Of a stretch of DNA of 64,000 bases, positions 1 through 34,707 are shown piece after piece. The position numbers and the translations under genes were made by a program. The DNA comes from Flagellimonas sp. Lineage in GTDB: Bacteria > Bacteroidota > Bacteroidia > Flavobacteriales > Flavobacteriaceae. Below the pieces are notes generated by a model, which was given only the letters and a program-made list of their open reading frames with translations, searched no databases and was not told the DNA's origin. The stretch's first letter is position 1, and every line of letters starts with the position of its first letter. Location: NCBI RefSeq assembly GCF_965212575.1, contig NZ_OZ243113.1:1115662-1179661 (forward strand), given 5' to 3'.

Positions 1-1009
1 TTGGTATTTGCAAAATACGGTCGCATTTAGAAAACGCCAACCCTGATCTAAATTTGTTGTATTGGTCATAATTGGATTCATTTTCCAACCAAGCTAGATA
101 AATTGCAGGGGTGTTGACCCCGGCTTCGTGTGAAAAGGGATAACCTCCTCCAAAACGGGGGTTCATTTCCAAAAAGTAGACCTCACCATCGACCACAAAG
201 AAATCGCAATCCATGTTGCCAACATGTTTTGTCGCTTTAGCAATTTTTTCGGCAACCATATTATACTTTTGGTTAACAATGGAAATGGCCTTGTCCGTTT
301 CTCCAGAACGCATCCCCAATTTTTTACGAACAAACGAGCCATAGTATTCTCCATCAAAATTGTTCAAAATATCAATGCCATATTCCTCACCGTTAAGTTT
401 TTCTTGTATCATTATGCAATTTTCGGCATCTGAAGAGCTTACTGTTCCAAGAATTGACCTGCTTACCTTTAGGTGTTGTAATTTATAGGAAAGCTCAAGT
501 TCCTCAACGGATTTAACAATGTCAATGCTTATTGAAGCACTTCCCCAACGCGGTTTTACCACAAGTGGAAAATGTAATTCATTGTTTTTAAGTGCTTCTT
601 TGGCAGAAGCGATATTTATGTAGGTAAGCGGGGTTTTAATGCTATTTTCTTTAAAGAAGTGATAGGATTTCCATTTGTCAAAGCAGATATCAATCACATT
701 TTGGGATGAAATCAAAATCCGTGCTCCAGATTTTTCCAATTGTTCCTTGTTCTTTGCTAAAATGGGCAGCTCAAGGTCGTTAAGAGATATAACGGCATCA
801 ATTTTTTCTTCGGTAATGACTTTTTCAATTGCCGAAATATAATTTTTATCATATATACTTGGTACTTTTTTTGCAACATCAGCATCAACTAAAGCCGGTG
901 CCGAAAGCTGCATATCCACGGCAACAACGGATCCTTTGCCATTTAAAGCCTCTTTAAAATAGTTTATTAGATAATTTCTGCGACCTGCACAGGTAAATAG
1001 AATATTCAT
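1..1009 (-). CDS. ATP-grasp family amide ligase (carbamoyl-phosphate-synthase-like fold); C-terminus lies beyond the left window edge
   Basis: Absent from the ORF track because there is no stop inside the window. My hand translation of the minus strand from ATG at 1009 stays open to position 2: MNILFTCAGRRNYLINYFKEAL...HFPLVVKPRWGSASISI...VYFLEMNPRFGGGYPFSHEAGVN... The KPR.G..S and E.NPR.GG blocks are typical of ATP-grasp ligases. Confidence 0.75.
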   Translation of the reverse strand, partial: MNILFTCAGRRNYLINYFKEALNGKGSVVAVDMQLSAPALVDADVAKKVPSIYDKNYISAIEKVITEEKIDAVISLNDLELPILAKNKEQLEKSGARILISSQNVIDICFDKWKSYHFFKENSIKTPLTYINIASAKEALKNNELHFPLVVKPRWGSASISIDIVKSVEELELSYKLQHLKVSRSILGTVSSSDAENCIMIQEKLNGEEYGIDILNNFDGEYYGSFVRKKLGMRSGETDKAISIVNQKYNMVAEKIAKATKHVGNMDCDFFVVDGEVYFLEMNPRFGGGYPFSHEAGVNTPAIYLAWLENESNYDQYNKFRSGLAFSKCDRILQIP

Positions 1010-1019
1010 TGCGTTAGGA

Positions 1020-2039
1020 TTAAGCTGTTTTCAATCTATATTTTGGGAAAAAATTGGACTCCGTGTTTTTTTGTTCTTCAGTAAGCATGTTTTCATAGGC
1101 CTTTGGCATAACCACAAACTTCCACACCTTGAACGCTGCATAATTTTTGGAAAACGAAGATTTGAACCTCATCAAAGACCCTTCCCTTCCTCCGGTTCCA
1201 CCGCCAAGATTTAGAAATTTCACATCATTTTTTTTATATCGTTTTCGGCATTCGTCAAACAAAAGTCGCAAAGGGCTGCTTTTAAAATACTTTTCCACTG
1301 TAAATGCAAGCTCTACATGAGCAATTTCCTTTGTTTCAATTAGCAATGCACCAGCCATTATTTCATTGGTTTCGCAATTAACTGCAAATAGTATATCTGT
1401 TGTAAAGAAATTGGAATTGAACAATGTGGTGAAATAGTTTTCATCAAAATAGAATAGCGATTTGGCTTTCAACCTATCCAAACTTCTATGGTAGTATTTA
1501 ATAAAAGCTTTCAAATCCTTTTTTAAATCCCCAACCCGTATGTAACTGTTCTTCCTTAACTTTTTAAGGACTTGTCTTGTGTTTCTGCTGTATGCTGTAC
1601 GTTGCTCTTCTTCATTCGAAGTTTGGTCAAAATAAACCAATTCCCCAACATTTTCGATTCGCCCCATGTTCTTTAATATAGCGTTCTGCATAGGGACATA
1701 TGGATTGAGTTTTGAAAAAATGGCAATTATTTTTTTACTTTCCAACAAATTTTTCAGCGCCTTCGAAAAATCTTTGTTTTCAAAATCATGATCTAGGTTT
1801 TTATGGACCGGCCCAAGATAGCCATGAACAGAAGTTAAGTCCTTATAACCATTCTCCAAGGTTCTTTCAATAACAGGAAGTCCAATTTGTGTAGTTCCTT
1901 GTTCGTAAGCTATCAGTAAAACCTTTTCATCAATATTACAGAGCAATTGGTGATAATCATAGGTATGATAAAAATCGAAATGGTCCATACTTGAAACCCA
2001 TTTGTCCCATTCACCTTTATGTTCAATTATTTTGATCAT
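1020..2039 (-). CDS. FemAB/FemX-like (GNAT-fold) aminoacyl/acyl transferase
   Basis: 339-aa ORF. The C-terminal LNLGGGTGGREGSLMRFKSSFS resembles the G..G(L)..FK..F signature of FemAB-type transferases. Its start overlaps the upstream stop by 4 nt (ATGA, 2036-2039). Call rests on motif and length only. Confidence 0.55.
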   Translation of the reverse strand: MIKIIEHKGEWDKWVSSMDHFDFYHTYDYHQLLCNIDEKVLLIAYEQGTTQIGLPVIERTLENGYKDLTSVHGYLGPVHKNLDHDFENKDFSKALKNLLESKKIIAIFSKLNPYVPMQNAILKNMGRIENVGELVYFDQTSNEEEQRTAYSRNTRQVLKKLRKNSYIRVGDLKKDLKAFIKYYHRSLDRLKAKSLFYFDENYFTTLFNSNFFTTDILFAVNCETNEIMAGALLIETKEIAHVELAFTVEKYFKSSPLRLLFDECRKRYKKNDVKFLNLGGGTGGREGSLMRFKSSFSKNYAAFKVWKFVVMPKAYENMLTEEQKNTESNFFPKYRLKTA

Positions 2040-2908
2040 TTGGCCAAGTAATTAAATATCCCTCCCGTGTACCAAAACAACACCTGACCTTTGATATTGT
2101 TTTTCTTTACAGTTTCCAACATTCCATAAAAGGCTTTTGCGGTATATGTGGTATCAAGGGCAAAACCATAATTCATTAATGAATCATCGGCTATTTGTTT
2201 TATTTCTTCATTATATTTTTCATAACCACCACATAAAAAGGAATCATCAACTATGACTTTTGTCGATGTTCCGCTGATGTTATTTTTCTCGCATAATTGC
2301 TCATAAAACTCTTGTACGGTATTTTGGGCTTTTTTAGAAGTTCTGCCCACTGAAATCCCCACTACCTTAATGTCCAAACCCTTTTTGGTGATTCCAGCTA
2401 AAAGACCAGCATGAGTAGTCCCTGATCCTGAGGCCAAGAAAATATATTCCGGTGCATGGCCAGAATCTATTAACTTTTCCAGTTCGCTGATGTAACAGCT
2501 GCCCCCGTCGAATGTATGTCCTCCCCCATAGAGATAAAGCGGATTTAAACCACTTTCATTGTAGGCCTGCATCGCAAAATCCATTTTGCCCGATATTTCG
2601 CAGGGATTACAGAAAATTAGCGAAGCACCACTTTCTCTAATTATTTTGGCGTTACCCGATTCAATGAACATTCGTTCTCTATCGCCATGAAGTACCAAAG
2701 TGCATTTAAGGTTGTTCTTTTTTGAATAAAGAGCGGTTGCCCTACAGTGATTAGACTGAATGCCCCCGGTTGTAACAATGGCACTATAGTTCTCATCTTT
2801 TATTCTTGAATCCAAAGCCATCATTTTTCTAGCTTTATTGCCTCCACCCAAATACGGATACATATCATCACGAAAGACAGATATCTGATTAGTTATTCTT
2901 TGTATCAA
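2036..2908 (-). CDS. Fold-type II PLP enzyme, D-cysteine desulfhydrase / ACC deaminase family
   Basis: 290 aa. FRDDMYPYLGGGNKARKM (PLP-lysine motif) and GGIQSNHCRATAL match the DcyD/ACC-deaminase family. It looks shorter at the N-terminus than canonical DcyD. It overlaps the upstream sugar transferase gene by 20 nt. Confidence 0.7.
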   Translation of the reverse strand: MIQRITNQISVFRDDMYPYLGGGNKARKMMALDSRIKDENYSAIVTTGGIQSNHCRATALYSKKNNLKCTLVLHGDRERMFIESGNAKIIRESGASLIFCNPCEISGKMDFAMQAYNESGLNPLYLYGGGHTFDGGSCYISELEKLIDSGHAPEYIFLASGSGTTHAGLLAGITKKGLDIKVVGISVGRTSKKAQNTVQEFYEQLCEKNNISGTSTKVIVDDSFLCGGYEKYNEEIKQIADDSLMNYGFALDTTYTAKAFYGMLETVKKNNIKGQVLFWYTGGIFNYLAK

Positions 2909-3578
2909 AAGTGTCGGTTTTAATTGATGTTTTTTGGTTGGTTCGGTAAGTGTCTAGAGCATCCATTGTTAGATCTACAACAATTTCATCTTCCGAGGTA
3001 TGGAAGATTTTTTTGACCGTTTTCAAGAGAATAGCTACATCTAACCAGAAAGTAAGTCTGTTTACATATTCAATGTCCAGAGCTAATTTTTGATCCCAGT
3101 TCAATTTATTCCTTCCTGAGACTTGTGCCAATCCTGTAATTCCTGGCTTAACGGTATGCCTTATTTTTTCTTCCTGTGTATAATAGGGGAGATATCGTAC
3201 TCGCAATGGTCTAGGACCTACCAAACTCATGTCTCCCTTAATTACATTTATAAGTTGTGGTATTTCATCTAAAGAACTTTTTCTTAGAAAATTTCCAATG
3301 GGTGTTAGCCTATCAGCATCGGGAAGTAAACTTCCGGAAGCATTGGTTGCATCACTCATAGACTTGAATTTAATAATCTCAAATATTTCCTCATTTTTTC
3401 CAGGTCTTTTTTGGAAGTAAAAAGGTTGTTTTTTATTTGTGAACCATAAGATTATATAGATTATGATGAAAACTGGAGACAAGATAAGCAAGCCAATTAG
3501 GGATGAAATAAAGTCAATTATCCGTTTAATTAAGTTTCCGTACATATTGAGGTTTGTATGGTTATAAGTGTATTCCAA
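2889..3578 (-). CDS. Priming phosphoglycosyl transferase (bacterial sugar transferase, PglC / WbaP-C-terminal type)
   Basis: 229 aa. One N-terminal hydrophobic helix (LLILSPVFIIIYIILWF), then the KFKSM and LDEIPQLINVIKGDMSLVGPRPL motifs of the bacterial sugar transferase family. Confidence 0.85.
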   Translation of the reverse strand: MEYTYNHTNLNMYGNLIKRIIDFISSLIGLLILSPVFIIIYIILWFTNKKQPFYFQKRPGKNEEIFEIIKFKSMSDATNASGSLLPDADRLTPIGNFLRKSSLDEIPQLINVIKGDMSLVGPRPLRVRYLPYYTQEEKIRHTVKPGITGLAQVSGRNKLNWDQKLALDIEYVNRLTFWLDVAILLKTVKKIFHTSEDEIVVDLTMDALDTYRTNQKTSIKTDTFDTKNN

Positions 3579-3633
3579 AAGTACTTTATCATAACAGAGA
3601 AGTAATCATAATATTATAAGAATATTATTGGTT

Positions 3634-4938
3634 TTAAAGATTTGGTTCCTGATAATATTTGTTTAATGTCAACTTTCTTTTTCCAGAGGACAACCTTGGT
3701 ATTTCATCCACATATTCAAAATAGATGTTGGCCTCATCACCAAGGTATTTTTTTAATAAGGTTTTGGCCTTTTCCTCCTTGTGAAATATGCCTTCAATGT
3801 TGAGCAGAACTTTATAATCTTTTTTACCTTCTTGAATTACTTGAAATTGTTTGAGTTGGGGAAAATGTTCAAACTCATAAGCCAAATACGGTGATATTCT
3901 ATTTCCAGAGGAATCAAAAAGAACGTCCATTTTCCTTCCTTCAATTTGAGTTAAAACAGGAGCACTGCTAAACCGATTTTCGCAGATATCCATAATTCCT
4001 AAATCTCCGGTATCGTATCTTATCATTGGCATGCAATAGTTGAACAAATCGGTAATTACAATGCGCCCAAGTTGTCCGTTTTTCACTGGTTTATCACTAT
4101 CAATTTCCAGAATTTCCACATGATAGCTCGCCCAATTGATATAGAAATTGTCTCCGAGACCAGGTAATTGTTGGGCAATAATTCCGTTTTCGGCATTGCT
4201 ATACCTTGAAATGACATTGGTATTGAAAAAGCTCTCCAAGTCATTCTTGGTTTTTGGACTCAATGCCTCTGCAATTGCAATTATTGAAGATACTTTGGTG
4301 CCTAACTTGTCTTTTTTTCTTGTTAAATAATCACATAAGTCTTTGTAGGCGGAAGAATAGCCAATTAAAGAAATGGCCGCATTACTTTTCGAAAGTTTAT
4401 TTGTAAGGCTGTCTAAATGGCCATCTGTTAATTTTGAGACATCAATTGGAATGACATTCTGGATCCATTTAGTTATTGGGTTTTTGGAATTCGTTTTATC
4501 CCATTTCCTAAAATAGTACAACGGCTGCCCCAAAACATATCCACCTTTCTTTCCAAAATATAATGTATCTGCCGTATTTCGTTCTTTTTTTTTCCGATCT
4601 TGAACCACCTGAAAAGGAGTGCCTGTAGAGCCACTTGTCTGAACCTGGTATGTAGGTTCTTGGAAACCTGCGTTGGCTTGAAAATTTTTAAAATGCTTCC
4701 GTAATTTTATTTTATCAATTATCGGGAAATCGTTTAGAGAAGTGTGATCACTGAAATCTGAATAGAAAATTGTGTTAGTTGTTGAATGATCCAAAATGTT
4801 TTTAAGAATTTGTTCTCTGCGAGCTAATGAGTCTTCACTGTCGAACTTTTCTAAAATGGATTGGATATCATCAAAGTGGCTTTTTACATTGCCTCCCCTT
4901 AACTTGTCAAATAGCCAAAATGCCCTATCTCTGATCAT
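3634..4938 (-). CDS. CapK / PaaK-like adenylate-forming enzyme (phenylacetate-CoA ligase / F390 synthetase family), paralogue 2
   Basis: 434 aa. Has the TSGSTGTPF adenylation P-loop, IRYDTGDL and a C-terminal LSSGKRKL. Collinear with the ORF at 5984-7297. Confidence 0.7.
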   Translation of the reverse strand: MIRDRAFWLFDKLRGGNVKSHFDDIQSILEKFDSEDSLARREQILKNILDHSTTNTIFYSDFSDHTSLNDFPIIDKIKLRKHFKNFQANAGFQEPTYQVQTSGSTGTPFQVVQDRKKKERNTADTLYFGKKGGYVLGQPLYYFRKWDKTNSKNPITKWIQNVIPIDVSKLTDGHLDSLTNKLSKSNAAISLIGYSSAYKDLCDYLTRKKDKLGTKVSSIIAIAEALSPKTKNDLESFFNTNVISRYSNAENGIIAQQLPGLGDNFYINWASYHVEILEIDSDKPVKNGQLGRIVITDLFNYCMPMIRYDTGDLGIMDICENRFSSAPVLTQIEGRKMDVLFDSSGNRISPYLAYEFEHFPQLKQFQVIQEGKKDYKVLLNIEGIFHKEEKAKTLLKKYLGDEANIYFEYVDEIPRLSSGKRKLTLNKYYQEPNL

Positions 4939-5005
4939 TTTTGTTTAAGTTTTTATAACACCATTGGGCGTAAAACGGGGAAGCTTTTAAAAAATATTTG
5001 GTTGG

Positions 5006-5959
5006 TTACAAAACCATTTTGGTATCAATTCTCAGTTTTTCTAACATAATTTCAGTCATATCCATCAAGTTATGGTTAGGTTTCCAGCCCCAGTCCTGTC
5101 TAGCTCTAGAATCGTCGATTGTTTTTGGCCAACTGTCAGCTATTTTTTGGCGAAAATCCGGTTCATATTTTATTTGAAAATCTGGGTAGACAACTTTAAT
5201 TGAATGGGCAATTTCTTCAGGAGAAAAACTGATACCAGCCAAATTATAGGCCGATCGTACCCTAATATCGGATGAATCAGCCTCCATAATTTCCATAGTT
5301 GCGCGAATAGCATCATCCATATAGATCATGGGCAATGTGGTGTCCCCTTTTAAGAAACATATAAAATTCTGGTGGTTAACGGCTTTATGATAAATATCCA
5401 CGGCATAATCCGTTGTACCACCTCCAGGAAGCGATTGATAACCGATAATTCCAGGGTACCTTAGAGATCTTATATCCGTTTTATACTTTTTATGGTAATA
5501 CTGCATAAGGCTCTCTGCTGCCACCTTGTTAACCCCATACATGGTTGACGGGTTAAGTGGGGCATTTTGTGGCGTATTGAAAGAAGGTGCATCCTCTCCA
5601 AATACGGCAATTGAACTTGGGAAAAATACTTTTCCAATGTTATGCTTTCTTGAAACTTCCAAAACATTTAACAAAGATCCCATATTCACATCCCAAGTTA
5701 CAACTGGATTTTCTTCTCCTTTGGCTGAAAGTATTGCTGCCAAATGATAAATTTGGGAGATGCCATATTTCTGGACAATCTTTTCTAAAGCAGAATAATC
5801 GGTGGCGTCCAAATGTTCGAAAGTACCATCGGTAAATATTGATTCGGTAATATCGGATGCAACCACAGAATTTGTCCCATATTTATATCTTAAAGCTTCG
5901 GTTAAGACACTTCCAATCTGCCCACAGGCTCCGGTTACTAAGATGTTGCTAATTTTCAT
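5006..5959 (-). CDS. Extended SDR resembling UDP-galactose-4-epimerase-like L-threonine 3-dehydrogenase
   Basis: 317 aa. Motifs seen: VTGACGQIG (NAD), MYGVNKVAAE (Y-x-x-x-K), PGGGTTDYAV and YEPDFRQKIADSWPKTIDDSRARQDWGWKP. I recognise this pattern from SDR-type threonine dehydrogenases. Confidence 0.65.
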   Translation of the reverse strand: MKISNILVTGACGQIGSVLTEALRYKYGTNSVVASDITESIFTDGTFEHLDATDYSALEKIVQKYGISQIYHLAAILSAKGEENPVVTWDVNMGSLLNVLEVSRKHNIGKVFFPSSIAVFGEDAPSFNTPQNAPLNPSTMYGVNKVAAESLMQYYHKKYKTDIRSLRYPGIIGYQSLPGGGTTDYAVDIYHKAVNHQNFICFLKGDTTLPMIYMDDAIRATMEIMEADSSDIRVRSAYNLAGISFSPEEIAHSIKVVYPDFQIKYEPDFRQKIADSWPKTIDDSRARQDWGWKPNHNLMDMTEIMLEKLRIDTKMVL

Positions 5960-5983
5960 TGTAAATAGGCTTATGGATTTTGT

Positions 5984-7297
5984 TCAATTAGTTGTTTCAT
6001 TTACGACAAGTTTCCTTTTTCCAGAGGACAACAAAGGGATTCCTTTCACGTATTCAATATTGATATCGGCATCTTGCCCCAAATATCCTTTGAATTCGTT
6101 TATTAATTCATCTTCTCTCGGAAATGTTTTCCATGGGTTTAATCGGAATACATATTCTTTATGCCCTTTTTGTGCAAATTGATACTGTTTTAATTCTGTA
6201 TACTTCCACATATTAACCGTTACTATATGAGAAGTAATTACATTGTTGTTGGTGTCTCTTATCAAATCAACTTTCCTACCTTCGATACTCTTTAACACAG
6301 GTGCGCCATTTTCTTTGGAATTCTCAGACATATAAGCTAAATCTCCAGTATCATATCGTATCAAGGGCATACAATAGTTGAAAAGATCGGTAACCACTAC
6401 TCTTCCCATTTTTCCTGGCTCTACTGGAACATCTTTGTCAGGATGAAGCAGTTCAATATAAAAACTGGCCCAATTTACGTGAAACTCATACCCGCCCAAA
6501 CAGCTCTGCTGAGCTAGCATACCACACTCCATGTTGGAGTATCTTGATACCACAGGGACTTCAAAATAATGTTCCATTCTATCTTTGGTATGGTTACTTA
6601 AGGCATCTGAGTTTGTGATGACCGAGGTAATATTGTAATTGTTGGGTTTAGCTTTGACCGAATCTAAATAATTGGCTATGACATCACAAGTAGAGGCAAA
6701 GCAAACCAACCCTTTTTTGGATATGTCCTTATCTAAATCTTTAATCAATTGTTTGATATCTTCATCCGTATAGTTAAAAATACTGTAGGGTCTAATGTTT
6801 TCCATCCATAATTTGAAAGGGGATTTCTTGTTGATGTCATTCCATACCTTCATATAAATCAACCGGGAACCTATTTCAAATCCACCTTTTTTAGCAAAGT
6901 ATATAATATCGGCATTATTTCTGCACCTTTTATTTTGATTGTGAAACAGCTTAAAGGGTGTCCCCGTGGAACCGCTGGTTACTACAGGAGTATTTTCAGC
7001 GTTCAAGAACTTATCGGACTTAAACTGATCATAATTATCTCTGACTGTTCCCTTATTGATCACTGGAAAATCTTCCAATTTTGCCCCCTTAGCATGCCTT
7101 GTATAAAAGGGGACAGTTTTAATGGCATGGTCTAAGGCTTTTTTTAGATGCGAATCTCTTCTTTTCTTGGATTCTTTGGACTGGAAATTCTCCAAAATAA
7201 AAGTGATATCATTGTAGTGTTTTCTTATTGGACTACCTTTGAAAAAATCCAAACACCAAAAACATAGTTTCCTAAATCTCTCCAACAGTGGTTTCAT
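5984..7297 (-). CDS. CapK / PaaK-like adenylate-forming enzyme, paralogue 1
   Basis: 437 aa. Has TSGSTGTPF, VVSRYSNMECGMLAQQ, TDLFNYCMPLIRYDTGDL and LSSGKRKL. Its start overlaps the upstream stop by 1 nt (TAATG at 7297). Confidence 0.7.
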   Translation of the reverse strand: MKPLLERFRKLCFWCLDFFKGSPIRKHYNDITFILENFQSKESKKRRDSHLKKALDHAIKTVPFYTRHAKGAKLEDFPVINKGTVRDNYDQFKSDKFLNAENTPVVTSGSTGTPFKLFHNQNKRCRNNADIIYFAKKGGFEIGSRLIYMKVWNDINKKSPFKLWMENIRPYSIFNYTDEDIKQLIKDLDKDISKKGLVCFASTCDVIANYLDSVKAKPNNYNITSVITNSDALSNHTKDRMEHYFEVPVVSRYSNMECGMLAQQSCLGGYEFHVNWASFYIELLHPDKDVPVEPGKMGRVVVTDLFNYCMPLIRYDTGDLAYMSENSKENGAPVLKSIEGRKVDLIRDTNNNVITSHIVTVNMWKYTELKQYQFAQKGHKEYVFRLNPWKTFPREDELINEFKGYLGQDADINIEYVKGIPLLSSGKRKLVVNETTN

Positions 7298-8352
7298 TAT
7301 TGGTTTTTTATATTGGTTAGCATTTCTTTGAATAGAGGATGCTTCGCAAACCCTCCATACCCCATTTCACCGTAAAGAAGCCCAGGTTGGTCATTTCCCT
7401 CAATAATTATAGGGCCCAGAGGTGTTATAGCTATATCCCAACCTATTAATCTGTTTGGAATCTGTAAAGCCAGTTCTGAGCAAAGCACTTTTGCTTCATT
7501 CAAAAATGGGATTTTAAACCCTTCAAAGACAAATCCGGTGTCAGGATGTCTGTAATATACTTCACCTCCAAATTTCATGGATTGTGAACCCGCTTTGTCC
7601 AAGTGTTCGGTTTGTTGATTTATTTGGACGTAAAAACCTCCAGAGGACACATTATCCACATTGCTGCCTCCTGTTCCAAATCTCATAAAGTTTACCAAAA
7701 CATGTGGTTTGTGATCATTATCTATATAGGTATTTATACGAATTGTATTGACGGAGTTGGGATAGATTTCCTGTATTTTTGGATGTTGTACTACAGCTAT
7801 TTGATGTATAGTGGCCCCTTGTAATATGATATCTCCATATTTTTTGATTTTATCCGCAAGATTTTCAGGAGTTATCATGAAAATCTGTTTGCCCATACAT
7901 CCCGCCAGGGGTTTAATGAAAATTTTTGATTGACCGGTTTCTACAAATAAATCAGAGAAAAATACGATTAGGCCGTCCTTTGAATCTATTCTTGTCTTAT
8001 GTCCTTTTACAAAAAAAGTATTTTGCATATTGTAACTGAAAACTTCCGGTGTTGGTATCTGGTTTTCCTTACAGAATAACCAAAAAGAGAGCTTGTTTTC
8101 TAATAGGTATATATACTCCTCCTTATTGTGTATTGGAGCATGAATAATAGAAAAATACTCCTTCATAGTTAAAAAGTCTTGGGGTTTTTGAACTTCTTTT
8201 CGATATAAAAAACGTCCAAAATAATGTATTGGGAAGCTTTTCTTTAAAATCCATAATTCTAGAACTTCCTTGACCATTAGAAAAGGATTTTTTTTATCCT
8301 TATCTTTCAGAAACACGCTAATACGCTTAAGGTTATCGCTCAGTTGTCCCAT
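7297..8352 (-). CDS. Sugar-transfer-associated ATP-grasp / alpha-L-glutamate-ligase-related protein
   Basis: 351 aa; first gene of the minus-strand operon. The C-terminal half (NVSSGGFYVQI...HPDTG...IGWDIAITPLGPIIIEGNDQPGL) looks like the ATP-grasp family found next to sugar transferases. Call from motifs only. Confidence 0.6.
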   Translation of the reverse strand: MGQLSDNLKRISVFLKDKDKKNPFLMVKEVLELWILKKSFPIHYFGRFLYRKEVQKPQDFLTMKEYFSIIHAPIHNKEEYIYLLENKLSFWLFCKENQIPTPEVFSYNMQNTFFVKGHKTRIDSKDGLIVFFSDLFVETGQSKIFIKPLAGCMGKQIFMITPENLADKIKKYGDIILQGATIHQIAVVQHPKIQEIYPNSVNTIRINTYIDNDHKPHVLVNFMRFGTGGSNVDNVSSGGFYVQINQQTEHLDKAGSQSMKFGGEVYYRHPDTGFVFEGFKIPFLNEAKVLCSELALQIPNRLIGWDIAITPLGPIIIEGNDQPGLLYGEMGYGGFAKHPLFKEMLTNIKNQ

Positions 8353-8721
8353 AGGTAAAAAAGGGATGAAGGTTTTGGTTGTTATTATTGGTAAAACTAG
8401 ATCTATACGTTGTTATGGATAATTTTAATGGATTAACGTATTGATATTTTGGTTGTAGTGCTTTTCAAAAGGTAATCAATACCCTGTAATTGCACCAGAG
8501 GGGTTTTTATGTACGTCGTATTTATTTATACGTTTATATTCAAAGTTTTCGGAAGAGGATTTGTTTTTCTGGCTTTTTTTAGGAACAGGAAATTTGCAAA
8601 AAAATAATGCCAAGGGAATTATTTCTAAATTGCCTTTAGATAAAAATTTTAAGTATATAGAATTAAAATAGAGGGGATTATAAATCCTTTAGTTTTTAAA
8701 GAATGTTAAAATATGTGGCAG

Positions 8722-8793
8722 TTCATCGATAAAAGACCATCGATGAAATCCATATGTTTAGATAGGTTCGTAAAGTTACTGCATTTCATCGAA
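8722..8793. promoter_or_regulatory. Three copies of TTCATCGA: a perfect 9-bp inverted repeat plus one downstream direct copy; candidate operator upstream of the beta-helix lipoprotein gene
   Basis: TTCATCGAT (8722-8730), an 8-nt spacer, then ATCGATGAA (8739-8747). A third copy, TTCATCGA, lies at 8785-8792. All sit in the 503-bp divergent intergenic region. Confidence 0.35.
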
Positions 8794-8855
8794 TAATTTC
8801 GTTTTTAAACGATTTTGCTTTGAAGAAGACTTAATTTTAGAATCTCAATCTCTTT

Positions 8856-16701: not shown

Positions 16702-16750
16702 TGTTCAGCTAATAATTTGTGACAAGATTTCGGATAACTAAAATTTCAAA

Positions 16751-17464
16751 ATGGCCGAAGCACTAAAAAAAATAATTCTCTCAAACCGATGGTTCACATC
16801 CTTGGCCATTAGGCTTAACAAGTTTCGGTTAAAAAGAAAGTACAACCTTAAATTTGGTAAAGGAGTATTTGTAGGTTTTTCTGTAATCACTGAGGGGCGT
16901 AATTTTTTTGATGACAAAAGCTACATTACAAGTTCCCATATAGGGTACGGTTCTTATTTGGGAGCGAACACACAAATTTCAAAAGCTAGGATTGGACGTT
17001 ATTCATCCATTGGGCCTCGAGTAGATTGCGTATTTGGAAGGCATCCTTCAGATACGTTTGTTTCCACACATCCTGTTTTTTTTTCGACAAACAAACAAAT
17101 GGGCTATTCATATACAGAGGTTCCTTTGTTTGAAGAATCTGCACCAATGAGGGACACGGGAGGAAAGTACTCCATTTTGATTGGTAATGATGTTTGGATT
17201 GGAGCCAATGTGACCATCATGGATGGTGTCGCTATAGGGGATGGGGCTATTGTCGCGTCCAATGCACTTGTAACTAAAGATGTTCCCCCATATGCTATTG
17301 TTGGTGGGGTTCCGGCCAAGGTAATTAAAAAGAGGTTCACAGAAGAACAAATTGAATTTTTGCTCGAATTCAAATGGTGGGATAAACCGGAACAATGGAT
17401 TAGCAAAAATGCCCACCTGTTTGTTGATATTGAACGGTTATATACAGAGCATCAAAATGGATAA
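16751..17464 (+). CDS. Hexapeptide-repeat (LbH) acetyltransferase, CatB/Vat-like
   Basis: 237 aa. Has [49 protein letters not shown] and a C-terminal KWWD tail. Confidence 0.85.
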
Positions 17465-18623
17465 TCCTGTACCTATTGTTGTTGTTGGTTTTAATAGGCC
17501 TAGATCTATCTCAAGAATCCTTGAATCTTTGAGCAAAGCCTATTATCCAAATAAAAACATCCCCTTAATCATAAGTATTGATAAAGGTGACGATAATCAA
17601 GAAGTTTTGGATATAGCCAATAACTTTGAATGGTTGTATGGAGACAAAATTGTTCATAATAATCCAGAAAACCTTGGTCTTCGAAAACATATTATCCAAT
17701 GTGGTGATTTGAGCTTAAAATATGGTTCCGTGCTCATATTGGAAGATGATCTTTATGTCTCACCAAATTTCTATTATTATACGGTAAGGGCCCTTGAATT
17801 TTCGGATAACAAGACCTACATCGGAGGGATTTCACTTTACAACCACCAAACAAATGTTCATACGAATGACATTTTTTTGGCTTTGGACGATGGCTACGAT
17901 AATTGGTACTTTCAATTTGCCTCCTCTTGGGGTCAGGCTTGGACTGAAGGGCAATGGAAAAATTTTAAGGATTGGTATGGTGAAAATGATGTTTTACCAA
18001 GATCAGAGGCAATTCCCGCCAACGTAGCTAGCTGGTCGGACAAATCATGGTTGAAATTTTTTATTGCTTTTTTGATTGAAACCAACACCTATTTTTTATA
18101 TCCAAAACTATCCTTGACAACAAATTTCAGCGATGCTGGAACACATGTAAATACTAATAGTACGGGATATCAAGTGCCCTTGCTATCCATCAAAAAGGAA
18201 AATTATAATTTTAGCTCAATTGATAGTTGTAAAGGGATATATAATAGCTTTTATGAAAACACAACGTTAGCAAACTACTTGGAAATACCCAAAGAAGAAC
18301 TTTGTATTGACTTGTATGGATATCAACATTTAACCTCTGATCGGTATTGGCTGACATCAAAGACTGTTGGCTATAAAATCATCAAATCTTTTTCTCGGTC
18401 TTTAAGACCTTTAGAATTAAACATCATTGAAAATGTACAGGGTAACGAGTTCTTCTTATATGATACCAGTGTTATTGAGAAAAATGATTACAAGGAAAAT
18501 AGATATGGTAAAATCATGTATAATTTGAAACATTTAAACTACTATGATTTGTTGTATTTGTTTAAGGTTGAGACAAAAAGTAAAATTAAGCGCCTGATTC
18601 AAAAAGTAACCAGTAGATTCTAG
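17457..18623 (+). CDS. Glycosyltransferase, GT-A fold
   Basis: The track ORF starts at 17352. I prefer the ATG at 17457, which overlaps the upstream stop (ATGGATAA) and gives [15 protein letters not shown]... The acidic EDD motif (ILEDDLYV) is GT-A-like. Confidence 0.6.
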
Positions 18624-18690
18624 TATTAAACATTGACTAGTTTATAGGTATGATTTAGTTAAAAAGCACGGTATTCAAATCTTTGGGATT

Positions 18691-19290: not shown

Positions 19291-19313
19291 TTAACAATAA
19301 ATAAAAACGTATA

Positions 19314-28768: not shown

Positions 28769-30097
28769 TTATTTTTTTCCTATTTGATAATAAGTAAACC
28801 CTAGTTCATCCAATCTAGTATGGTCGAATTGGTTTCTTCCGTCAAAAATAATAGGTTCCATTAAAGTGTCTTTCATCTCCATAAAATCCGGGGAACGAAA
28901 CTCTTTCCATTCGGTAAGCAACAACATAGCATCTGCATTTTGAAGCGCCTCGTATTTCGTCTTTGTGTACGTCACGTTTGGTACGTTCTTTAGATAAAAT
29001 GACTGTGCTTCATGTATGGCTTTAGGATCATATGCTTGAACTTTAGCCCCTAAACCAGTCAGTTTTTTGATTATGTAAATGGAAGGAGCTTCGCGCATGT
29101 CATCGGTTCCTGGTTTGAAGGACAGCCCCCAAACTGCAAAAGTTTTGCCTTCCAAATCATCTCCATAATGACCTATTACCTTATCTGCTATCACAAATTT
29201 TTGTCGGTCATTGACATCTTCCACTGCATTCAGGAGTTGAGCATCATAGCCTTCTTGTTCGGCGGTCTTTTTTAAAGCCTTAACATCTTTGGGGAAACAA
29301 GAACCTCCATATCCACTACCTGGATAAATAAAACTGTATCCAATACGACTATCTGAACCAATACCAATTCTAACCTTGTTGACGTCAGCTCCAACGCGTT
29401 CGCAAATATTAGCTACCTCGTTCATAAACGAAATTTTGGTGGCCAACATCGCATTCGCTACATATTTGGTCATTTCCGCAGAGCGTACATCCATTACCAG
29501 CATACGATCCATACTACTTCTAAAAAAAGGAGCGTACAACCGTCGCATTTTTTCTGCCGTTTCCTTATCCTCCGTTCCTACTACAACTCTGTCTGGTTTC
29601 ATAAAATCGCCTAAGGCGTCACCTTCCTTTAAAAATTCAGGATTGGAGACAACATGAAATGTTATGTCCTCATTTCTCTTTTTCAATTCTTTCTGAATAG
29701 TGGCTCTTACTTTGTCCGCAGTTCCAACAGGCACAGTGGATTTGTCAACAACAATAAGAGGGGTGGTCATATGTTGCCCAATCTCCTTGGCAACTTGTAG
29801 CACGTATTGCAAATCTGCAGAACCATCTTCTCCCATAGGAGTTCCTACGGCAATAAAGGCCATATCACAATTTTCCAAACAGTCTTTTAATTGGGTGTGA
29901 AAATGCAGAGTTCCATTGGCCACATTACGTTTTACCATGGCTTCAAGGCCTGGCTCATAGATGGGTATTATGCCATTTTTAAGGTTTTCTATTTTCTTCT
30001 CATCAATGTCCACACAGGTAACATTGTTTCCCATTTCTGCGAAACATGTACCTGTGACCAAACCTACATATCCTGTCCCTACAATTGTTAATCTCAT
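28769..30097 (-). CDS. ugd: UDP-glucose 6-dehydrogenase
   Basis: 442 aa. Has [16 protein letters not shown] and the catalytic GGSCFPKD. Confidence 0.93.
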
Positions 30098-30355: not shown

Positions 30356-31381
30356 TTATAATTTGTAAAAAGAACGATACCATTTAACGAATTGTTTTAT
30401 TCCTTCATTTACCGGGGTATTTGGACAATAGTTGTAATCTTTTTGCAAATTGGTTACATCTGCCCAAGTTTTTTTAACATCCCCTGGCTGCATTGGCTTC
30501 ATGATTTTATTGGCTTTTAACCCCAAATTTTCCTCGATATTTTCTATAAAGTCTAAAAGCTTAACAGACTTACTGTTACCAATATTATAGAGATGATATA
30601 GTTTTTTGGTGTTATAGGTGTTCGTGTACCTGTCTTCAATAATACGTTCTACTCCTTCAATAATGTCGGTTATATATGTAAAATCCCGTTCCAAATCTCC
30701 ATTATTAAATACATCTATGGGCTTATTTTCGATAATGGCCTTTGTGAATAGAAACATGGCCATATCGGGCCTTCCCCACGGCCCATAAACAGTAAAGAAC
30801 CTTAATCCGGTAGTACGAAATCCATAAAGGTGGCTATACGTATGAGCCATTAACTCATTACTTTTTTTGGAAGCCGCATAAAGACTGACGGGGTGGTCCA
30901 CTGACTGAGACACATTGAATGGAATTTCTCTATTAAGTCCATATACGCTTGAACTACTTGCATAAACCAAATGCTTAACCGAATGATTTCTACAACACTC
31001 TAAAATATTAAGAAAACCAACTATATTACTGTCGACATAGGCTTCTGGATTTTCCAAACTGTATCTGACACCGGCTTGGGCAGCTAAATTGCAAACAACA
31101 TCTATATTTTCTTGTTTAAAAAGTTTCGGAAGGCCTTCACGATCTTCTATAGATAGTTTGACAAATTTAAATGAGGGGTATGTGTCACTTTGCCAGAAAT
31201 CACTTGGCTTCACATTTTTCTTTGCATACACTCCCAGGTCTTTTAGTCTGGCGTGTTTGAGGTTAACATCGCAATAGTCATTGATGTTGTCTACACCAAT
31301 TACTTCGTGATCATTTTCCAAGAGTTTTTTGCAAAGATGATATCCTATAAAACCTGCTGCACCTGTAATCAAGATTTTCAT
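30356..31381 (-). CDS. UDP-glucuronate 4-epimerase (NAD-dependent epimerase, Cap1J/LpsL-like)
   Basis: 341 aa. Has MKILITGAAGFIGYHL, DNINDYCDVNLKHARL and YAASKKSNE. Lies in the same minus-strand block as ugd. Confidence 0.8.
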   Translation of the reverse strand: MKILITGAAGFIGYHLCKKLLENDHEVIGVDNINDYCDVNLKHARLKDLGVYAKKNVKPSDFWQSDTYPSFKFVKLSIEDREGLPKLFKQENIDVVCNLAAQAGVRYSLENPEAYVDSNIVGFLNILECCRNHSVKHLVYASSSSVYGLNREIPFNVSQSVDHPVSLYAASKKSNELMAHTYSHLYGFRTTGLRFFTVYGPWGRPDMAMFLFTKAIIENKPIDVFNNGDLERDFTYITDIIEGVERIIEDRYTNTYNTKKLYHLYNIGNSKSVKLLDFIENIEENLGLKANKIMKPMQPGDVKKTWADVTNLQKDYNYCPNTPVNEGIKQFVKWYRSFYKL

Positions 31382-31630: not shown

Positions 31631-32764
31631 ATGGAAACTACTTTGCAGAAAAAAATATGGTTGTCATCTCCCCACATGGGTGGCACGGAACAAAGCTATG
31701 TGAATGAAGCCTTTGCAACCAATTGGGTTGCACCTTTGGGTCCAAACGTTAGTGGTTTTGAAATAGATATTCAAGAGTATATTGGGAATAATATTAATGC
31801 CGCATGTTTAAGTTCGGGTACTGGTGCTATTCATTTGGCTTTGGAACTTCTCGGGGTAACTCAAGGGGATGAGGTGCTTTGCCAAAGTTTTACGTTTGCG
31901 GCCTCGGCCAACCCAATTACCTATTTGGGGGGCAAGCCTATTTTTATTGATAGTGAACGTGATACATGGAATATTTCTCCAGATTTGCTGGAGAGGGCAA
32001 TATTGGATAGAATTCAATATGGTAAAAAACCCAAGGCTATTATCGCCGTGCATTTATATGGAATGCCCTACAAGGTCGATGAGGTTATTTCAATTTCCCA
32101 TAAATATGACATCCCAGTAATTGAGGATAGTGCAGAAGCTTTAGGTAGCAGGTATAAAGACATAAGATGCGGAAGCTTTGGTGATATGGCCATTTTGTCG
32201 TTTAATGGAAATAAAATCATTACAACTTCTGGCGGAGGGGCCTTATTGTGTAAAGATGAACACATTAAAAAAAGAGCAGTTTTTCTAGCTACCCAGGCAA
32301 GAGACAACGCTCCGCATTATCAACATTCCCACATAGGCTACAATTATCGAATGAGCAATGTTCTTGCTGGTATTGGACGAGGACAGATGGAAGTTCTTCC
32401 GCAACGAGTTCAGGCAAGGCGGGATAATTTTGCGTTTTACCATAAAAACTTAGCCGGAATTTCAGAGATAAAATTTCTTGAAGAACCAAAAGGATTCTAT
32501 TCAAACAGATGGCTCACATGTATTTTAACCCCTTCATTTGAGGTACGAGAGAATATTAGAGTGAAGTTGGAACATGAGAATATTGAATCCCGACCACTAT
32601 GGAAGCCCATGCATTTGCAGCCAGTATTTGAAAACGAAGTCCATTATACTAATGGTGTGAGTGAAGATCTTTTTAATAGAGGTTTATGCCTGCCCAGTGG
32701 TTCTAATCTGGACCAAGAAGATTTAGAAAAGATTTGCCACATCATTAAAAACCTACTTAAATGA
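31631..32764 (+). CDS. DegT/DnrJ/EryC1/StrS-family sugar aminotransferase (PglE-like, 4-keto-6-deoxy-HexNAc 4-aminotransferase)
   Basis: 377 aa. Has SFNGNKIITTSGGGALL (PLP lysine). An ATGA overlap links it to the downstream PglF/CapD-like dehydratase. Confidence 0.85.
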   Translation: METTLQKKIWLSSPHMGGTEQSYVNEAFATNWVAPLGPNVSGFEIDIQEYIGNNINAACLSSGTGAIHLALELLGVTQGDEVLCQSFTFAASANPITYLGGKPIFIDSERDTWNISPDLLERAILDRIQYGKKPKAIIAVHLYGMPYKVDEVISISHKYDIPVIEDSAEALGSRYKDIRCGSFGDMAILSFNGNKIITTSGGGALLCKDEHIKKRAVFLATQARDNAPHYQHSHIGYNYRMSNVLAGIGRGQMEVLPQRVQARRDNFAFYHKNLAGISEIKFLEEPKGFYSNRWLTCILTPSFEVRENIRVKLEHENIESRPLWKPMHLQPVFENEVHYTNGVSEDLFNRGLCLPSGSNLDQEDLEKICHIIKNLLK

Positions 32765-34707
32765 TAAAAAAGTACATTTTTGACAATAATCGGCACTATG
32801 CATCTAAATGGACGGTATTGTTCATTGATTTGTTCATCGCCGCCGCTTGTTTCATCTTGGCTTATTTTATAAGATTTAATCTCAGCTTCAGCTTTGATGT
32901 TCAAAAATTGTGGACACAGCTACCAATAGTAATTCTTCTGTTTTTGGGAGCCTTTCTCATATCAGGAAGTTATAAAGGAGTTGTTCGGCATACCGGAATA
33001 AAGGATGTCTATGCAATTTTCAATGCTATCTGTTTGGCCAGTATTAGTACCATTGTGTTGATTCTATTTAACAGATATGCCAAGATAGTTGATGGATTCA
33101 CTATTCCATTATCCATTATTATCATTAACAGCTTACTTGCATTCATTGCACTTACGGCGGCTAGATACGTTTTTAAGATTGTATTTGAAAGTTTGGTTAA
33201 CAGAAATGAGATTCCGACCAAGAACATTATCGTTTACGGTGCGGGTGAGTCAGGTATAATCACATACAACACCTTGACAAATCATTCCAAAATGAAGGTT
33301 AAGGTTGTTGGATTTGTTGATAACAACCTTCAGAAAGTTGGTAAACAGATAAATGGGGTCAAAGTATATAACAAAAATATCCTTACAAGGGATTTCGTTA
33401 GATTTAACAACATTTCGGAAATTATTTTCTCTATTCAGAGTATCCCGCCTAGAAAACTTAGAACTCTGGTTAACGAGATTGTAGATCTTCCTGTAAATGT
33501 GAAGATCGTACCCCCAGTGGAAGATTGGATAAACGGGGAGCTGAAAGTTTCTCAGATCAAGCAGGTCCAGATTGAAGATTTATTGGATAGACCTCCAATT
33601 CAAATCAAAAACAGCAAGGTCATGAAGGATTTTGAAGACAAGGTCATCATGGTTACTGGAGGTGCAGGATCTATTGGAAGCGAGTTGGTTCGTCAAATCT
33701 GTAAATACAACTATAGGGCGCTAGTTGTTGTCGACCAAGCGGAATCGGCGCTCTATGACCTACAACAAGAGCTTAAACAGGCAGGATACTTCAATTTTAT
33801 CCCAATAGTCGGTGATATCAGGGATAAAAATAAAATGCGTGTTTTGTTCGAGGAATATAAACCGGATAGAATTTTTCATGCCGCTGCATATAAGCATGTT
33901 CCGCTCATGGAATGTAACCCCTATGAAGCAGTTAAGATTAATGTAGCGGGCACAAAAAACCTGGTCGATTTGGCAATCGAGTATGATGTTGAAAAATTTG
34001 TTTTTGTATCCACCGATAAAGCTGTCAACCCCACTAATGTAATGGGCGCGACCAAGAGAATCGCTGAAATGTATATCAGTAGTAGACAACAAGACGACAA
34101 GACAAAATTTGTTACTACAAGATTTGGAAATGTTTTGGGGTCCAATGGTTCGGTTATACCTTTGTTCAGGAAACAAATTGAAAAAGGAGGGCCTTTAACG
34201 GTTACACACAAGGATATCACAAGATATTTTATGACAATTCCTGAAGCTTCCCAGTTGGTTCTTGAAGCCGGAGCGATGGGAAAGGGAGGTGAGATTTTTA
34301 TATTTGATATGGGTGAATCTGTCAAGATTATGGATTTGGCCAAAAATATGATTCGACTTTCTGGGCTCCATTACCCTGATGATATTGATATAAAAATTAC
34401 AGGGCTCCGTCCGGGCGAAAAGCTATATGAAGAACTTTTGGCCAATGGTGAAAACACTTTACCAACCTATCATGACAAAATAATGATAAGTAAGGTTAGG
34501 GATATTGATTATGCTAAAACAAGGAATATGATTGATGAGCTTTGTATTTCAAATCTATTCTTTAAAGATAATGTAGTTCAATTAATGAAAAGAATTGTTC
34601 CTGAGTACATCTCTAACAACTCCGATTTTTGTAAATTGGACGATGAGAAGGAAGAATCAAAAACTGAGAAAACTTCAAGATCTAATATTGCACAACTCAA
34701 CAGCTAA
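32761..34707 (+). CDS. Membrane-anchored UDP-GlcNAc 4,6-dehydratase (CapD / PglF / WbpM family)
   Basis: 648 aa. N-terminal TM helices, then VTGGAGSIGSEL, HAAAYKHVP and MGATKRIAE. Confidence 0.88.
   Translation: MIKKYIFDNNRHYASKWTVLFIDLFIAAACFILAYFIRFNLSFSFDVQKLWTQLPIVILLFLGAFLISGSYKGVVRHTGIKDVYAIFNAICLASISTIVLILFNRYAKIVDGFTIPLSIIIINSLLAFIALTAARYVFKIVFESLVNRNEIPTKNIIVYGAGESGIITYNTLTNHSKMKVKVVGFVDNNLQKVGKQINGVKVYNKNILTRDFVRFNNISEIIFSIQSIPPRKLRTLVNEIVDLPVNVKIVPPVEDWINGELKVSQIKQVQIEDLLDRPPIQIKNSKVMKDFEDKVIMVTGGAGSIGSELVRQICKYNYRALVVVDQAESALYDLQQELKQAGYFNFIPIVGDIRDKNKMRVLFEEYKPDRIFHAAAYKHVPLMECNPYEAVKINVAGTKNLVDLAIEYDVEKFVFVSTDKAVNPTNVMGATKRIAEMYISSRQQDDKTKFVTTRFGNVLGSNGSVIPLFRKQIEKGGPLTVTHKDITRYFMTIPEASQLVLEAGAMGKGGEIFIFDMGESVKIMDLAKNMIRLSGLHYPDDIDIKITGLRPGEKLYEELLANGENTLPTYHDKIMISKVRDIDYAKTRNMIDELCISNLFFKDNVVQLMKRIVPEYISNNSDFCKLDDEKEESKTEKTSRSNIAQLNS

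Follow-up and report, generated by a model that had tools for sequence, protein, structure and literature searches.

A Flagellimonas surface-polysaccharide locus joins a widespread priming-transferase cassette to separable modules of predicted amide-forming enzymes

Main

We analysed a block of eight tightly packed minus-strand genes that lies at one end of a 64,000-nucleotide stretch of Flagellimonas sp. DNA (NCBI RefSeq assembly GCF_965212575.1, contig NZ_OZ243113.1, positions 1,115,662 to 1,179,661 of the forward strand; this whole stretch is called the window below). Numbered in the order in which they would be transcribed, the genes encode a sugar-transfer-associated ATP-grasp protein (ATPgrasp_ST, gene 1), a CapK/PaaK-like adenylate-forming enzyme (gene 2), an L-threonine 3-dehydrogenase (TDH)-like enzyme (gene 3), a second CapK-like enzyme (gene 4), a small phosphoglycosyl transferase (PGT, gene 5), a pyridoxal phosphate (PLP)-dependent enzyme (gene 6), a FemX-like transferase (gene 7) and a second ATP-grasp ligase (gene 8) (Table 1). 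The layout and the family memberships are confirmed, and by gene content the block is the predicted initiation-and-tailoring arm of a Wzx/Wzy-type surface-polysaccharide locus.

Genes 5-8 are a widespread cassette that couples the priming PGT to the PLP enzyme and the ATP-grasp ligase and is often followed by an amino-sugar aminotransferase gene. The block as a whole is a mosaic of separable modules, in which ATPgrasp_ST followed by CapK, and CapK followed by the TDH-like gene, are separate recurrent pairs. From these linkages, and from a partial precedent in Bacillus cereus, we propose a pathway in which the enzymes of the block provide the first sugar with an unusual side chain of the amino-acid type, a model to which we assign a probability of about 50%.

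Results

Genes 5-8 form a conserved cassette linked to DegT

Gene neighbourhoods were surveyed from two anchors. The scan anchored on CapK took one genome per species, which was then searched by tblastn with all eight proteins, and yielded 81 loci; the scan anchored on the PLP enzyme took metagenome contigs, whose hits were analysed by tblastn, and yielded 30 loci with enough flanking sequence and 45 of at least 5 kb. The PLP gene adjoined a gene-8-type ATP-grasp gene in 29 of the 30 loci and a PGT gene in 27. Among the 45 loci of at least 5 kb, a DegT-type aminotransferase gene directly followed the gene-8-type ATP-grasp gene in about 16, and the cassette-linked DegT proteins were often 50-64% identical to that of the window. 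In five cassettes (L082, L094, L095, L130 and L156), a PglF-like dehydratase gene came after DegT, making PGT, ATP-grasp, dehydratase and aminotransferase genes contiguous; the window locus encodes all four.

The same association is found in other genera. A capsule-type locus of Acinetobacter indicus reads fnlABC-GT4-PGT-GNAT-PLP-ATP-grasp-DegT-Gdr-galU-ugd-gpi-gne-pgm, and Arenibacter palladensis carries PGT-PLP-Acetyltransf_6-ATP-grasp-Acetyltransf_6. The FemX-like gene occurred in 7 of the 30 core-cassette loci and a gene for a small GNAT protein in 9, never together, which weakly suggests that the two are alternative cappers of one amine. Some of the 45 loci had an add-on gene besides the core, CapK in about 10 and ATPgrasp_ST in about 5, at varying positions.

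These linkages bear on the acceptor of the presumed side chain. The initial annotation, made from the sequence of the window, had named two candidates encoded in the same locus: a 4-amino group that the PglF/DegT pair would introduce and the uronate carboxyl supplied by Ugd and an epimerase. The DegT linkage favours the first. The second found no backing, as a Ugd homologue lay within 10 kb of CapK in none of 80 loci. DegT or PglF within 10 kb of CapK was also rare; this particular distance test is uninformative, because the window's own pair is 23-30 kb away.

The complete block rarely travels as a unit

The exact combination of eight genes is rare. Among about 165 other loci not one contained it intact, and the complete gene order was found outside the window only in L002, a Logan assembly, at 58-82% identity. 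Here the ATPgrasp_ST gene (7236-7640) is an internal-deletion remnant of which only residues 1-46 and 257-351 align; the other genes of the block can thus do without ATPgrasp_ST.

Parts of the block are much more common. In about 30 of the 81 CapK-anchored loci ATPgrasp_ST adjoined CapK, mostly directly on its upstream side, and a PGT gene lay beside CapK in 56; gene-8-type ATP-grasp genes were present in 21 of these loci and FemX-like genes in 17. Other frequent neighbours of CapK, whose relatives numbered more than 3,800 in one search, included GT4 transferases, PglD-type acetyltransferases, AMP-binding enzymes, Acetyltransf_6 paralogues and MBOAT proteins. Because the ATPgrasp_ST, PGT and CapK sub-modules recur, genes for amide- or ester-forming enzymes near the priming transferase are common in Flavobacteriaceae. 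The ATPgrasp_ST-CapK pair also occurs without genes 6-8, and genes 5-8 occur without CapK, TDH-like or ATPgrasp_ST genes. Thus, to the question raised at the outset, whether the block travels as a unit, the answer is split: the sub-modules (genes 5-8, ATPgrasp_ST-CapK and CapK-TDH) do, and the whole does so only in L002, with ATPgrasp_ST decayed. As worded, the initial proposal that a single operon builds a single side chain is not supported: the modules are separable, and ATPgrasp_ST is a deletion remnant in L002.

Both L002 and another related block, L084, have an additional CapK gene after the gene-8 orthologue. In L002 the region downstream of that orthologue (15010-21305) holds this third CapK gene, a convergent CapK gene and genes for a weakly AlgX-like protein of 317 aa, an MBOAT protein and a carbamoyltransferase; the DNA beyond window position 1 may hold tailoring genes of the same O-acyl or carbamoyl kind. 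Next to CapK or cassette loci of Flavobacteriaceae (L016, L083 and others), two kinds of protein recur, in 17-21 loci per cluster: secreted ones with a tyrosinase domain and a Por secretion tail, and large fn3 or beta-helix proteins.

Families of the cassette proteins

All eight family calls of the initial annotation held in Pfam, NCBIfam, PDB and family-profile searches. Gene 5 matched Bac_transf (PF02397) over the whole profile (5.4e-62, 209 bits), and models of large PGTs aligned by their C-terminal catalytic part only. An Asp-Glu dyad and a PRP motif characterise PglC-type PGTs, and both can be read in the sequence (LDEIPQ and GPRP). With its Bac_transf domain, these motifs and a length of about 200 aa (218 aa if counted from the first ATG), gene 5 is assigned to the PglC-type small monotopic PGTs.

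Gene 6 matched PALP (PF00291) at 1.7e-20, CuyA at 1e-40 and TIGR01275 at 1.5e-39, in each curated family below the cut-off (TIGR01275, 136 against 289; CuyA, 140 against 450; DcyD models, 90-102 against 429-610). Judged by these scores it is a separate subfamily, nearest to D-cysteine desulfhydrase and cysteate sulfo-lyase. Its PDB matches were 1j0a and 4d8t (~1e-24), and its relatives number more than 2,500 at E below 1e-10, including Acinetobacter proteins that are 49-54% identical. In an alignment of the family (A4), the PLP-binding lysine K25 (in GGNKARK), the QSNH motif (Q51-H54) and the catalytic tyrosine Y255 were invariant. Because QSNH, the motif that holds the carboxylate, is kept, the substrate is probably a free amino acid. 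A Tyr-Glu pair marks 1-aminocyclopropane-1-carboxylate (ACC) deaminases; gene 6 has Y255-T256, Thr also being the majority consensus in A4 at position 256, and with scores far under the cut-offs we rejected an assignment as ACC deaminase. The public annotation (P0121) gives the protein 261 aa, 90% of the open reading frame (ORF), and this start, which appears to truncate the N terminus, would drop K25. The TTG start at 2908 is backed by homologues of 289-300 aa and by the L002 orthologue.

As a single sequence, gene 7 had no match in the PDB, and its Pfam match to Acetyltransf_6 (8e-5) was just over the gathering score. A profile of its family (A2, 16 sequences) reached Weissella FemX (4ii9) at 1.1e-10, over residues 158-339 only, and FmhB at 0.01. 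The Phe-Lys pair of FemX contacts the tRNA end; F292-K293 of gene 7 aligns with it, with the lysine fixed throughout the family and the aromatic position variable. On this alignment, gene 7 is a candidate aminoacyl-tRNA-dependent transferase.

Gene 8 matched PF21360 at 4e-28, with ATP-grasp_3 (PF02655) and ATPgrasp_Ter (PF15632) over their cut-offs too, and scored 410 bits against NCBIfam NF009404 (cut-off 316). Its best solved relative was 2pn1, from a Bacillales organism (8e-50). Gene 1 matched PF14397 at 6.8e-43 (147 bits, cut-off 31); a PDB sequence search found no solved relative for it. An E-x-N metal-binding motif is invariant in an alignment of 23 gene-1 sequences (A3; E318 and N320) and can be read in gene 8 (LEMNPR). 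Both proteins pass curated profile cut-offs and carry this motif, which places them in the ATP-grasp superfamily at the level of sequence.

Families of genes 2-4

Genes 2 and 4 are paralogues (41% identity). Gene 2 matched NF045666 at 3e-26 and the other CapK copy matched this model at 3e-18; for gene 2, PaaK models followed at ~1e-15, far under their equivalog cut-offs, and the PDB sequence matches of gene 2 were ClxA and PaaK. The CapK_C domain (PF27533) is precomputed for gene 4 and for both orthologous CapK copies in L002. Both genes carry the P-loop of the ANL superfamily (TSGSTG) and the C-terminal catalytic lysine motif, and the ANL core motifs TSGSTG, RYSNxENG, YDTGD, EGRKxD and SSGKRK were invariant in an alignment of 38 sequences (A1). 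The AlphaFold model of gene 4 (pLDDT 86.7) was closest, in a Foldseek search, to BT_0428 and PaaK1/2 (~1e-22; 9e-23 to 4r1m; TM about 0.6), with ClxA, AjiA1 and NatL2 as further neighbours. NatL2, AjiA1 and ClxA form amide or ester bonds without CoA. Together, the profiles, motifs and model assign genes 2 and 4 to a CapK_C/PaaK-like branch of ANL adenylate-forming enzymes, with a predicted PaaK-type fold in gene 4. Phenylacetate-CoA ligase (PaaK) proper was considered and rejected for both, because the equivalog scores (TIGR02155, 55.7 and 32.4 bits) are far under the cut-off of 646.

Gene 3 is similar over its full length to the TDH of Flavobacterium frigidimaris (PDB 2yy7; 9e-107, 360 bits), reaches 8e-127 with engineered TDHs and scores 275-426 bits with 17 other sequences, nearly all named TDHs; the catalytic Y-x3-K can be read in it (MYGVNK). 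It shares about 63% identity with a housekeeping tdh whose locus consists of an AsnC-type regulator gene, tdh and an adjacent kbl-type gene, an Aminotran_1_2 gene that we read as kbl from its family, size and position. Gene 3 has no such Kbl partner in the block, being flanked by CapK genes. Its nearest relatives (67-81% identical, the L002 orthologue at 81%) all lie behind CapK in polysaccharide loci, those at 67-68% directly behind CapK and near PGT and gene-8-type ATP-grasp genes, and a rough neighbour-joining tree groups the CapK-linked copies together, apart from the housekeeping ones. Because the order of CapK followed by the TDH-like gene recurs in three other loci (L002, L164 and L165), it is a recurrent two-gene module. 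The modest divergence of gene 3 from housekeeping TDHs suggests that threonine 3-oxidation chemistry is retained; its substrate could be either free threonine or a threonyl group in amide linkage. In Flaviramulus sp. BrNp1-15 (L164, 3917-6960), kbl is missing and a CapK gene separates an AsnC-type regulator gene from the TDH-like gene, an arrangement that may have arisen when a housekeeping tdh locus was remodelled into a CapK-TDH module.

Layout of the operon and its surroundings

From position 8352 down to 1, the block comprises seven complete ORFs and an eighth that runs off the start of the window. Neighbouring genes overlap by 1 nt at 7297 (TAATG), 4 nt at 2036-2039 (ATGA) and 20 nt at 2889-2908, and the remaining gaps are 24, 67, 55 and 10 nt, so that the gene order and every junction first described (overlaps of 1, 20 and 4 nt, gaps under 70 nt) were reproduced. 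Gene 8 is cut by the window edge a few codons before its end (its orthologues have 339-343 aa), and the 3' end of the operon falls outside the window. Scans for signals gave null results: there was no terminator-like site between block genes, with a site count not above that of shuffled sequence; sigma-70-like and promoter-like sites in the block and upstream region were not enriched over shuffled controls; the TAnnTTTG motif was absent from 8353-8855; and neither an Rfam search nor a repeat scan of the block and upstream region found anything, the latter above chance. Judged by gene spacing, co-transcription of the eight genes is likely. A 688-aa ORF that diverges from the operon (8856-10922, plus strand) has no Pfam or NCBIfam match, and homologues of ~700 aa occur in 5 related loci.

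Table 1 Features of the block and of the sugar-nucleotide genes in the same locus, in window coordinates
Feature	Position	Strand	Remarks
Gene 1, sugar-transfer-associated ATP-grasp (ATPgrasp_ST)	7297..8352	-	351 aa; opens the operon
Gene 2, CapK/PaaK-like adenylate-forming enzyme	5984..7297	-	437 aa; paired with the downstream TDH-like gene
Gene 3, short-chain dehydrogenase/reductase (SDR)-type L-threonine 3-dehydrogenase-like enzyme	5006..5959	-	317 aa
Gene 4, second CapK/PaaK-like adenylate-forming enzyme	3634..4938	-	434 aa
Gene 5, small monotopic PglC-type PGT, predicted priming enzyme	2889..3578	-	229 aa from TTG
Gene 6, fold-type II PLP enzyme, D-cysteine desulfhydrase/ACC-deaminase group	2036..2908	-	290 aa; TTG start
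Gene 7, FemX-like transferase with two GNAT domains	1020..2039	-	339 aa; candidate aminoacyl-tRNA-dependent enzyme
Gene 8, ATP-grasp ligase with PylC-like N-terminal domain	1..1009	-	336 aa visible
Divergent intergenic region, presumed promoter region of the operon	8353..8855	.	503 bp; no listed ORF
Ugd, UDP-glucose 6-dehydrogenase	28769..30097	-	TuaD model 530 bits; NDP-sugar dehydrogenase subfamily over cut-off
GalE/TviC-like epimerase; with Ugd, alternative supply of a uronate acceptor	30356..31381	-	
DegT/PglE/LegC-type aminotransferase, presumed maker of the 4-amino group	31631..32764	+	PF01041 1.7e-92
PglF-like membrane-anchored UDP-GlcNAc 4,6-dehydratase	32761..34707	+	PseB and FnlA models match residues 291-592

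The surrounding locus contains gmd/fcl, wzx, an AsnB-like amidotransferase gene, glycosyltransferase genes, wecB, fnlABC, ugd, an epimerase gene, the DegT and PglF-like genes, wza, wzc and cpsB, and ends before mnmE. The DegT of the window scored 377 bits against the LegC family TIGR04181 (cut-off 420). We found no PglD/NeuD-type N-acetyltransferase gene in the window locus. Two O-acetyltransferase-like hexapeptide proteins that it encodes were considered as PglD and rejected, as they align by the C-terminal repeat region only and both look like Vat/WbbJ O-acetyltransferases.

Within the block, the initial count of five candidate amide-forming enzymes of three mechanistic classes stands. The AsnB-type glutamine amidotransferase of the locus (14845-16701, plus strand; TIGR01536, 425 bits) is a sixth potential one and could produce uronamide or acetamidino groups; homologues that are 80-83% identical occur in other Flagellimonas/Allomuricauda loci (L030, L061 and L079). 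A 142-aa ORF without a Pfam match (24746-25174, plus strand) lies between the fnlA-like and fnlB-like genes, and its L002 counterpart carries a faint FdtA-like mark. The GC content is 33-40% in the polysaccharide locus and its near flank (1-46000) and 42-44% after ~48 kb (48000-64000), a contrast that fits a horizontally exchanged, mosaic locus.

A proposed pathway and its alternatives

Our model follows from the Bacillus Pyl precedent described below, the conserved cassette and the lack of PglD in the locus; family memberships, motif conservation and gene linkages are its observed base, on which the substrates and the order of steps given here are predictions. From their families, the PglF-like dehydratase and DegT would make a UDP-4-amino-4,6-dideoxy-HexNAc. 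Gene 8, by its place in the cassette and by the Pyl precedent, would convert a carboxylic or amino acid to its acyl-phosphate and couple it to the 4-amine. Gene 6 would supply or edit that acid, giving either a 2-oxo acid by elimination or deamination or a D- or modified amino acid, the least certain step. Gene 7 would then act on a free amine of the nucleotide-linked intermediate and attach an aminoacyl residue, with aminoacyl-tRNA as the probable donor, much as FemX does on UDP-MurNAc-pentapeptide, and in sister cassettes the small GNAT would take its place at this capping step. The ATPgrasp_ST-CapK and CapK-TDH-like modules might lengthen the same chain or decorate another site, through acyl-adenylates and acyl-phosphates; one add-on unit would be threonine-derived, its 3-hydroxyl oxidised to 3-oxo. 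Finally, gene 5 would move the finished phospho-sugar to undecaprenyl phosphate, starting the repeat unit. The 4-amine is favoured as acceptor because of the linkage of DegT (and in some cassettes PglF) and because of the Pyl precedent.

Several points weigh against this pathway. The DegT and PglF-like genes of the window lie 23-30 kb from the block on the opposite strand and are not adjacent to it. The small GNAT of sister cassettes could be PseH-like and acetylate the 4-amine itself, in which case the PLP/ATP-grasp pair would act elsewhere; the mutual exclusion of FemX-like and GNAT genes has a hypergeometric P of about 0.06, calculated with the kinship of the loci ignored. If the acid were pyruvate or 2-oxobutyrate, its supply would scarcely need a dedicated enzyme. 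In about 20 CapK-anchored loci a gene-8-type ATP-grasp gene lies beside a PGT gene without the PLP gene, and because such pairs exist the PLP enzyme is not obligatory. The separable modules, for their part, do not require a single side chain. A single multi-amide side chain, as first proposed, is plausible from the sequences and stays conditional because the modules are separable and ATPgrasp_ST has decayed in L002.

The alternative that survives best, although we think it doubtful, places the modules on different residues: genes 5-8 would acylate the 4-amino sugar, and the two CapK enzymes and ATPgrasp_ST would amidate a uronate carboxyl with an amine generated in situ, such as aminoacetone or 2-amino-3-oxobutanoate produced by the threonine dehydrogenase, much as in the Cj1438 system. 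The separability of the modules and the presence of Ugd and an epimerase in the locus speak for this arrangement, as does gene 3, which at ~63% identity to housekeeping TDH probably uses free L-threonine and has no kbl to consume the product. Some PaaK-family enzymes, among them Foldseek neighbours of gene 4, couple a carboxylate to an amine directly, and in the Staphylococcus aureus type 1 capsule, whose cap1 locus is the source of the CapK name, taurine is amide-linked to GalNAcA. Amidation of glucuronate by an ATP-grasp enzyme is established in Campylobacter jejuni HS:2. Against it, the Ugd result given above (0 of 80 loci) contrasts with the 56 of 81 loci in which PGT is beside CapK, the AsnB-like amidotransferase of the locus could already explain a uronamide, and sequence searches of the PDB gave no link of genes 1 or 8 to Cj1438.

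At the other extreme is a stronger form of the single-chain reading, a ribosome-independent assembly line templated on the nucleotide sugar, in which acyl-phosphate, acyl-adenylate and aminoacyl-tRNA steps, one after another, would build a short peptide-like chain on UDP-4-amino-4,6-dideoxy-HexNAc before priming. This chain would include a threonine-derived 2-amino-3-oxobutanoyl unit, stable only through its amide-bound carboxyl. We regard this form as unlikely. It would bring the first biochemical functions for the CapK and ATPgrasp_ST families and the first FemX-type enzyme acting on a polysaccharide precursor, and a single chain of any kind would be a compact case of peptide-like synthesis on a sugar nucleotide.

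A more conventional possibility, and in our view quite an improbable one, is that the CapK proteins are ordinary acyl-CoA or acyl-carrier ligases and that gene 7 is a CoA-dependent GNAT using their products, so that N- or O-acylation would draw on acyl-CoA, with no part for aminoacyl-tRNA. The closest solved relatives of CapK are indeed phenylacetate-CoA ligases and BT_0428, the GNAT-family Pfam match of gene 7 is marginal with only its C-terminal domain aligning to FemX, and CapK neighbourhoods often include Acetyltransf_6 paralogues, AMP-binding enzymes and MBOAT acyltransferases. Set against this are the alignment of the tRNA-contacting Phe-Lys pair with F292-K293 and its invariant lysine, the occurrence of gene 7 in cassettes without CapK (L083, L085 and L088), and the PaaK equivalog scores. 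Least probable by far is that the TDH-like and PLP genes are metabolic passengers in an amide-ligase operon brought together by chance: the modest divergence of gene 3, the mosaic recombination for which polysaccharide loci are hot spots and the lower GC content of the locus than of the flanking genome would suit this, but the PLP gene is tied to PGT and ATP-grasp in 27-29 of 30 loci from distant taxa, the nearest relatives of gene 3 all lie behind CapK and cluster apart from housekeeping copies, and block genes are joined by overlapping stop and start codons.

Discussion

To a specialist, neither the gene families nor the prediction that they join amino acids to sugars will be a surprise. ATP-grasp N-acylation of UDP-4-amino sugars is already known; the PLP-coupled cassette and its multi-ligase extension are uncharacterised variants of it. 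What the survey adds is a division between the core cassette (PGT, PLP enzyme, ATP-grasp, DegT and PglF), which is also found in Acinetobacter, and the rarer add-ons, and with the core set apart the question becomes testable in vitro with a defined acceptor. The block is a testable entry point to the CapK-like, ATPgrasp_ST and FemX-like families, which are abundant in the capsule and O-antigen loci of Bacteroidota. Bacterial antigens commonly carry N-acyl groups of the amino-acid type on their amino sugars, and these groups shape recognition by antibodies and phages. The genes behind these groups are mostly unassigned, and the cassette offers candidates for this known chemistry.

No paper on the cassette was found in the searchable literature, which agrees with the initial statement that no characterised system has this gene combination. 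For modifications of this kind the K-locus catalogue of Acinetobacter baumannii names the genes qhb, gdr, atr and alt only, and it does not describe the cassette, nor does a paper on the Tenacibaculum O-antigen cluster; our literature search likewise returned no reported function for CapK-like, ATPgrasp_ST or polysaccharide-locus FemX-like proteins. In a Vibrio, phage infection depends on an ATP-grasp amidoligase from the capsule locus (PMC11382117).

Comparison with known systems

Each part of the block resembles a known system up to a point. Genes 2 and 4 have in common with the PaaK family (PaaK1/2, BT_0428, NatL2, AjiA1 and ClxA) the predicted fold and the ANL motifs that we checked, but identity is just 13-23% and genes 2 and 4 have a distinct conserved N-terminal helical region. 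Gene 3 has the full-length similarity and the catalytic Y-x3-K of SDR-type L-threonine 3-dehydrogenase (2yy7); whereas that enzyme is normally paired with Kbl, gene 3 has no kbl, lies behind CapK and belongs to a small separate clade. FemX of Weissella viridescens is of nearly the same length as gene 7 (335 against 339 aa), and the second GNAT domain and the Phe-Lys pair can be matched. It is a UDP-MurNAc-pentapeptide:L-alanine transferase that depends on Ala-tRNA and uses a soluble nucleotide-linked substrate with a free amine. Only half of gene 7 aligns with it, however, and the two come from different settings, a polysaccharide locus and peptidoglycan synthesis.

In Campylobacter jejuni HS:2, the ATP-grasp enzyme Cj1438 amidates glucuronate, and the amine-making enzymes Cj1435-1437 are encoded in the same cluster. 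As predicted for the window, an ATP-grasp enzyme forms a glycan amide, with the enzymes that make its partner encoded nearby. In that system the acceptor is the glucuronate carboxyl, the partner is an amine and assembly is anchored on poly-Kdo, whereas the context in the window favours the amine of an amino sugar. No chain named Cj1438 came up when the PDB was searched with the sequences of genes 1 and 8.

The closest parallel is the UDP-yelosamine pathway of Bacillus cereus ATCC 14579, in which the gene of the ATP-grasp enzyme Pyl adjoins that of a small PGT and Pyl couples 2-oxoglutarate to the 4-amine of a UDP-4-amino sugar (PMC11626204, section 13; Hwang 2014, cited as reference 100 in PMC8987622). 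The logic is the same, with a 4,6-dehydratase (Pdeg) and an aminotransferase (Pat) followed by an ATP-grasp enzyme and a PGT, and gene 8 is an ATP-grasp protein of matching size that shares an operon with a small PGT, the two being adjacent in many sister loci. Pyl can thus be taken as a characterised precedent for part of the block that the initial annotation had overlooked, the likeness being one of context and family. The cassette differs from the Pyl system in that a DcyD-like PLP enzyme almost always accompanies the ATP-grasp, and the window adds to this a FemX-like enzyme, two CapK proteins, a second ATP-grasp family and a TDH-like SDR.

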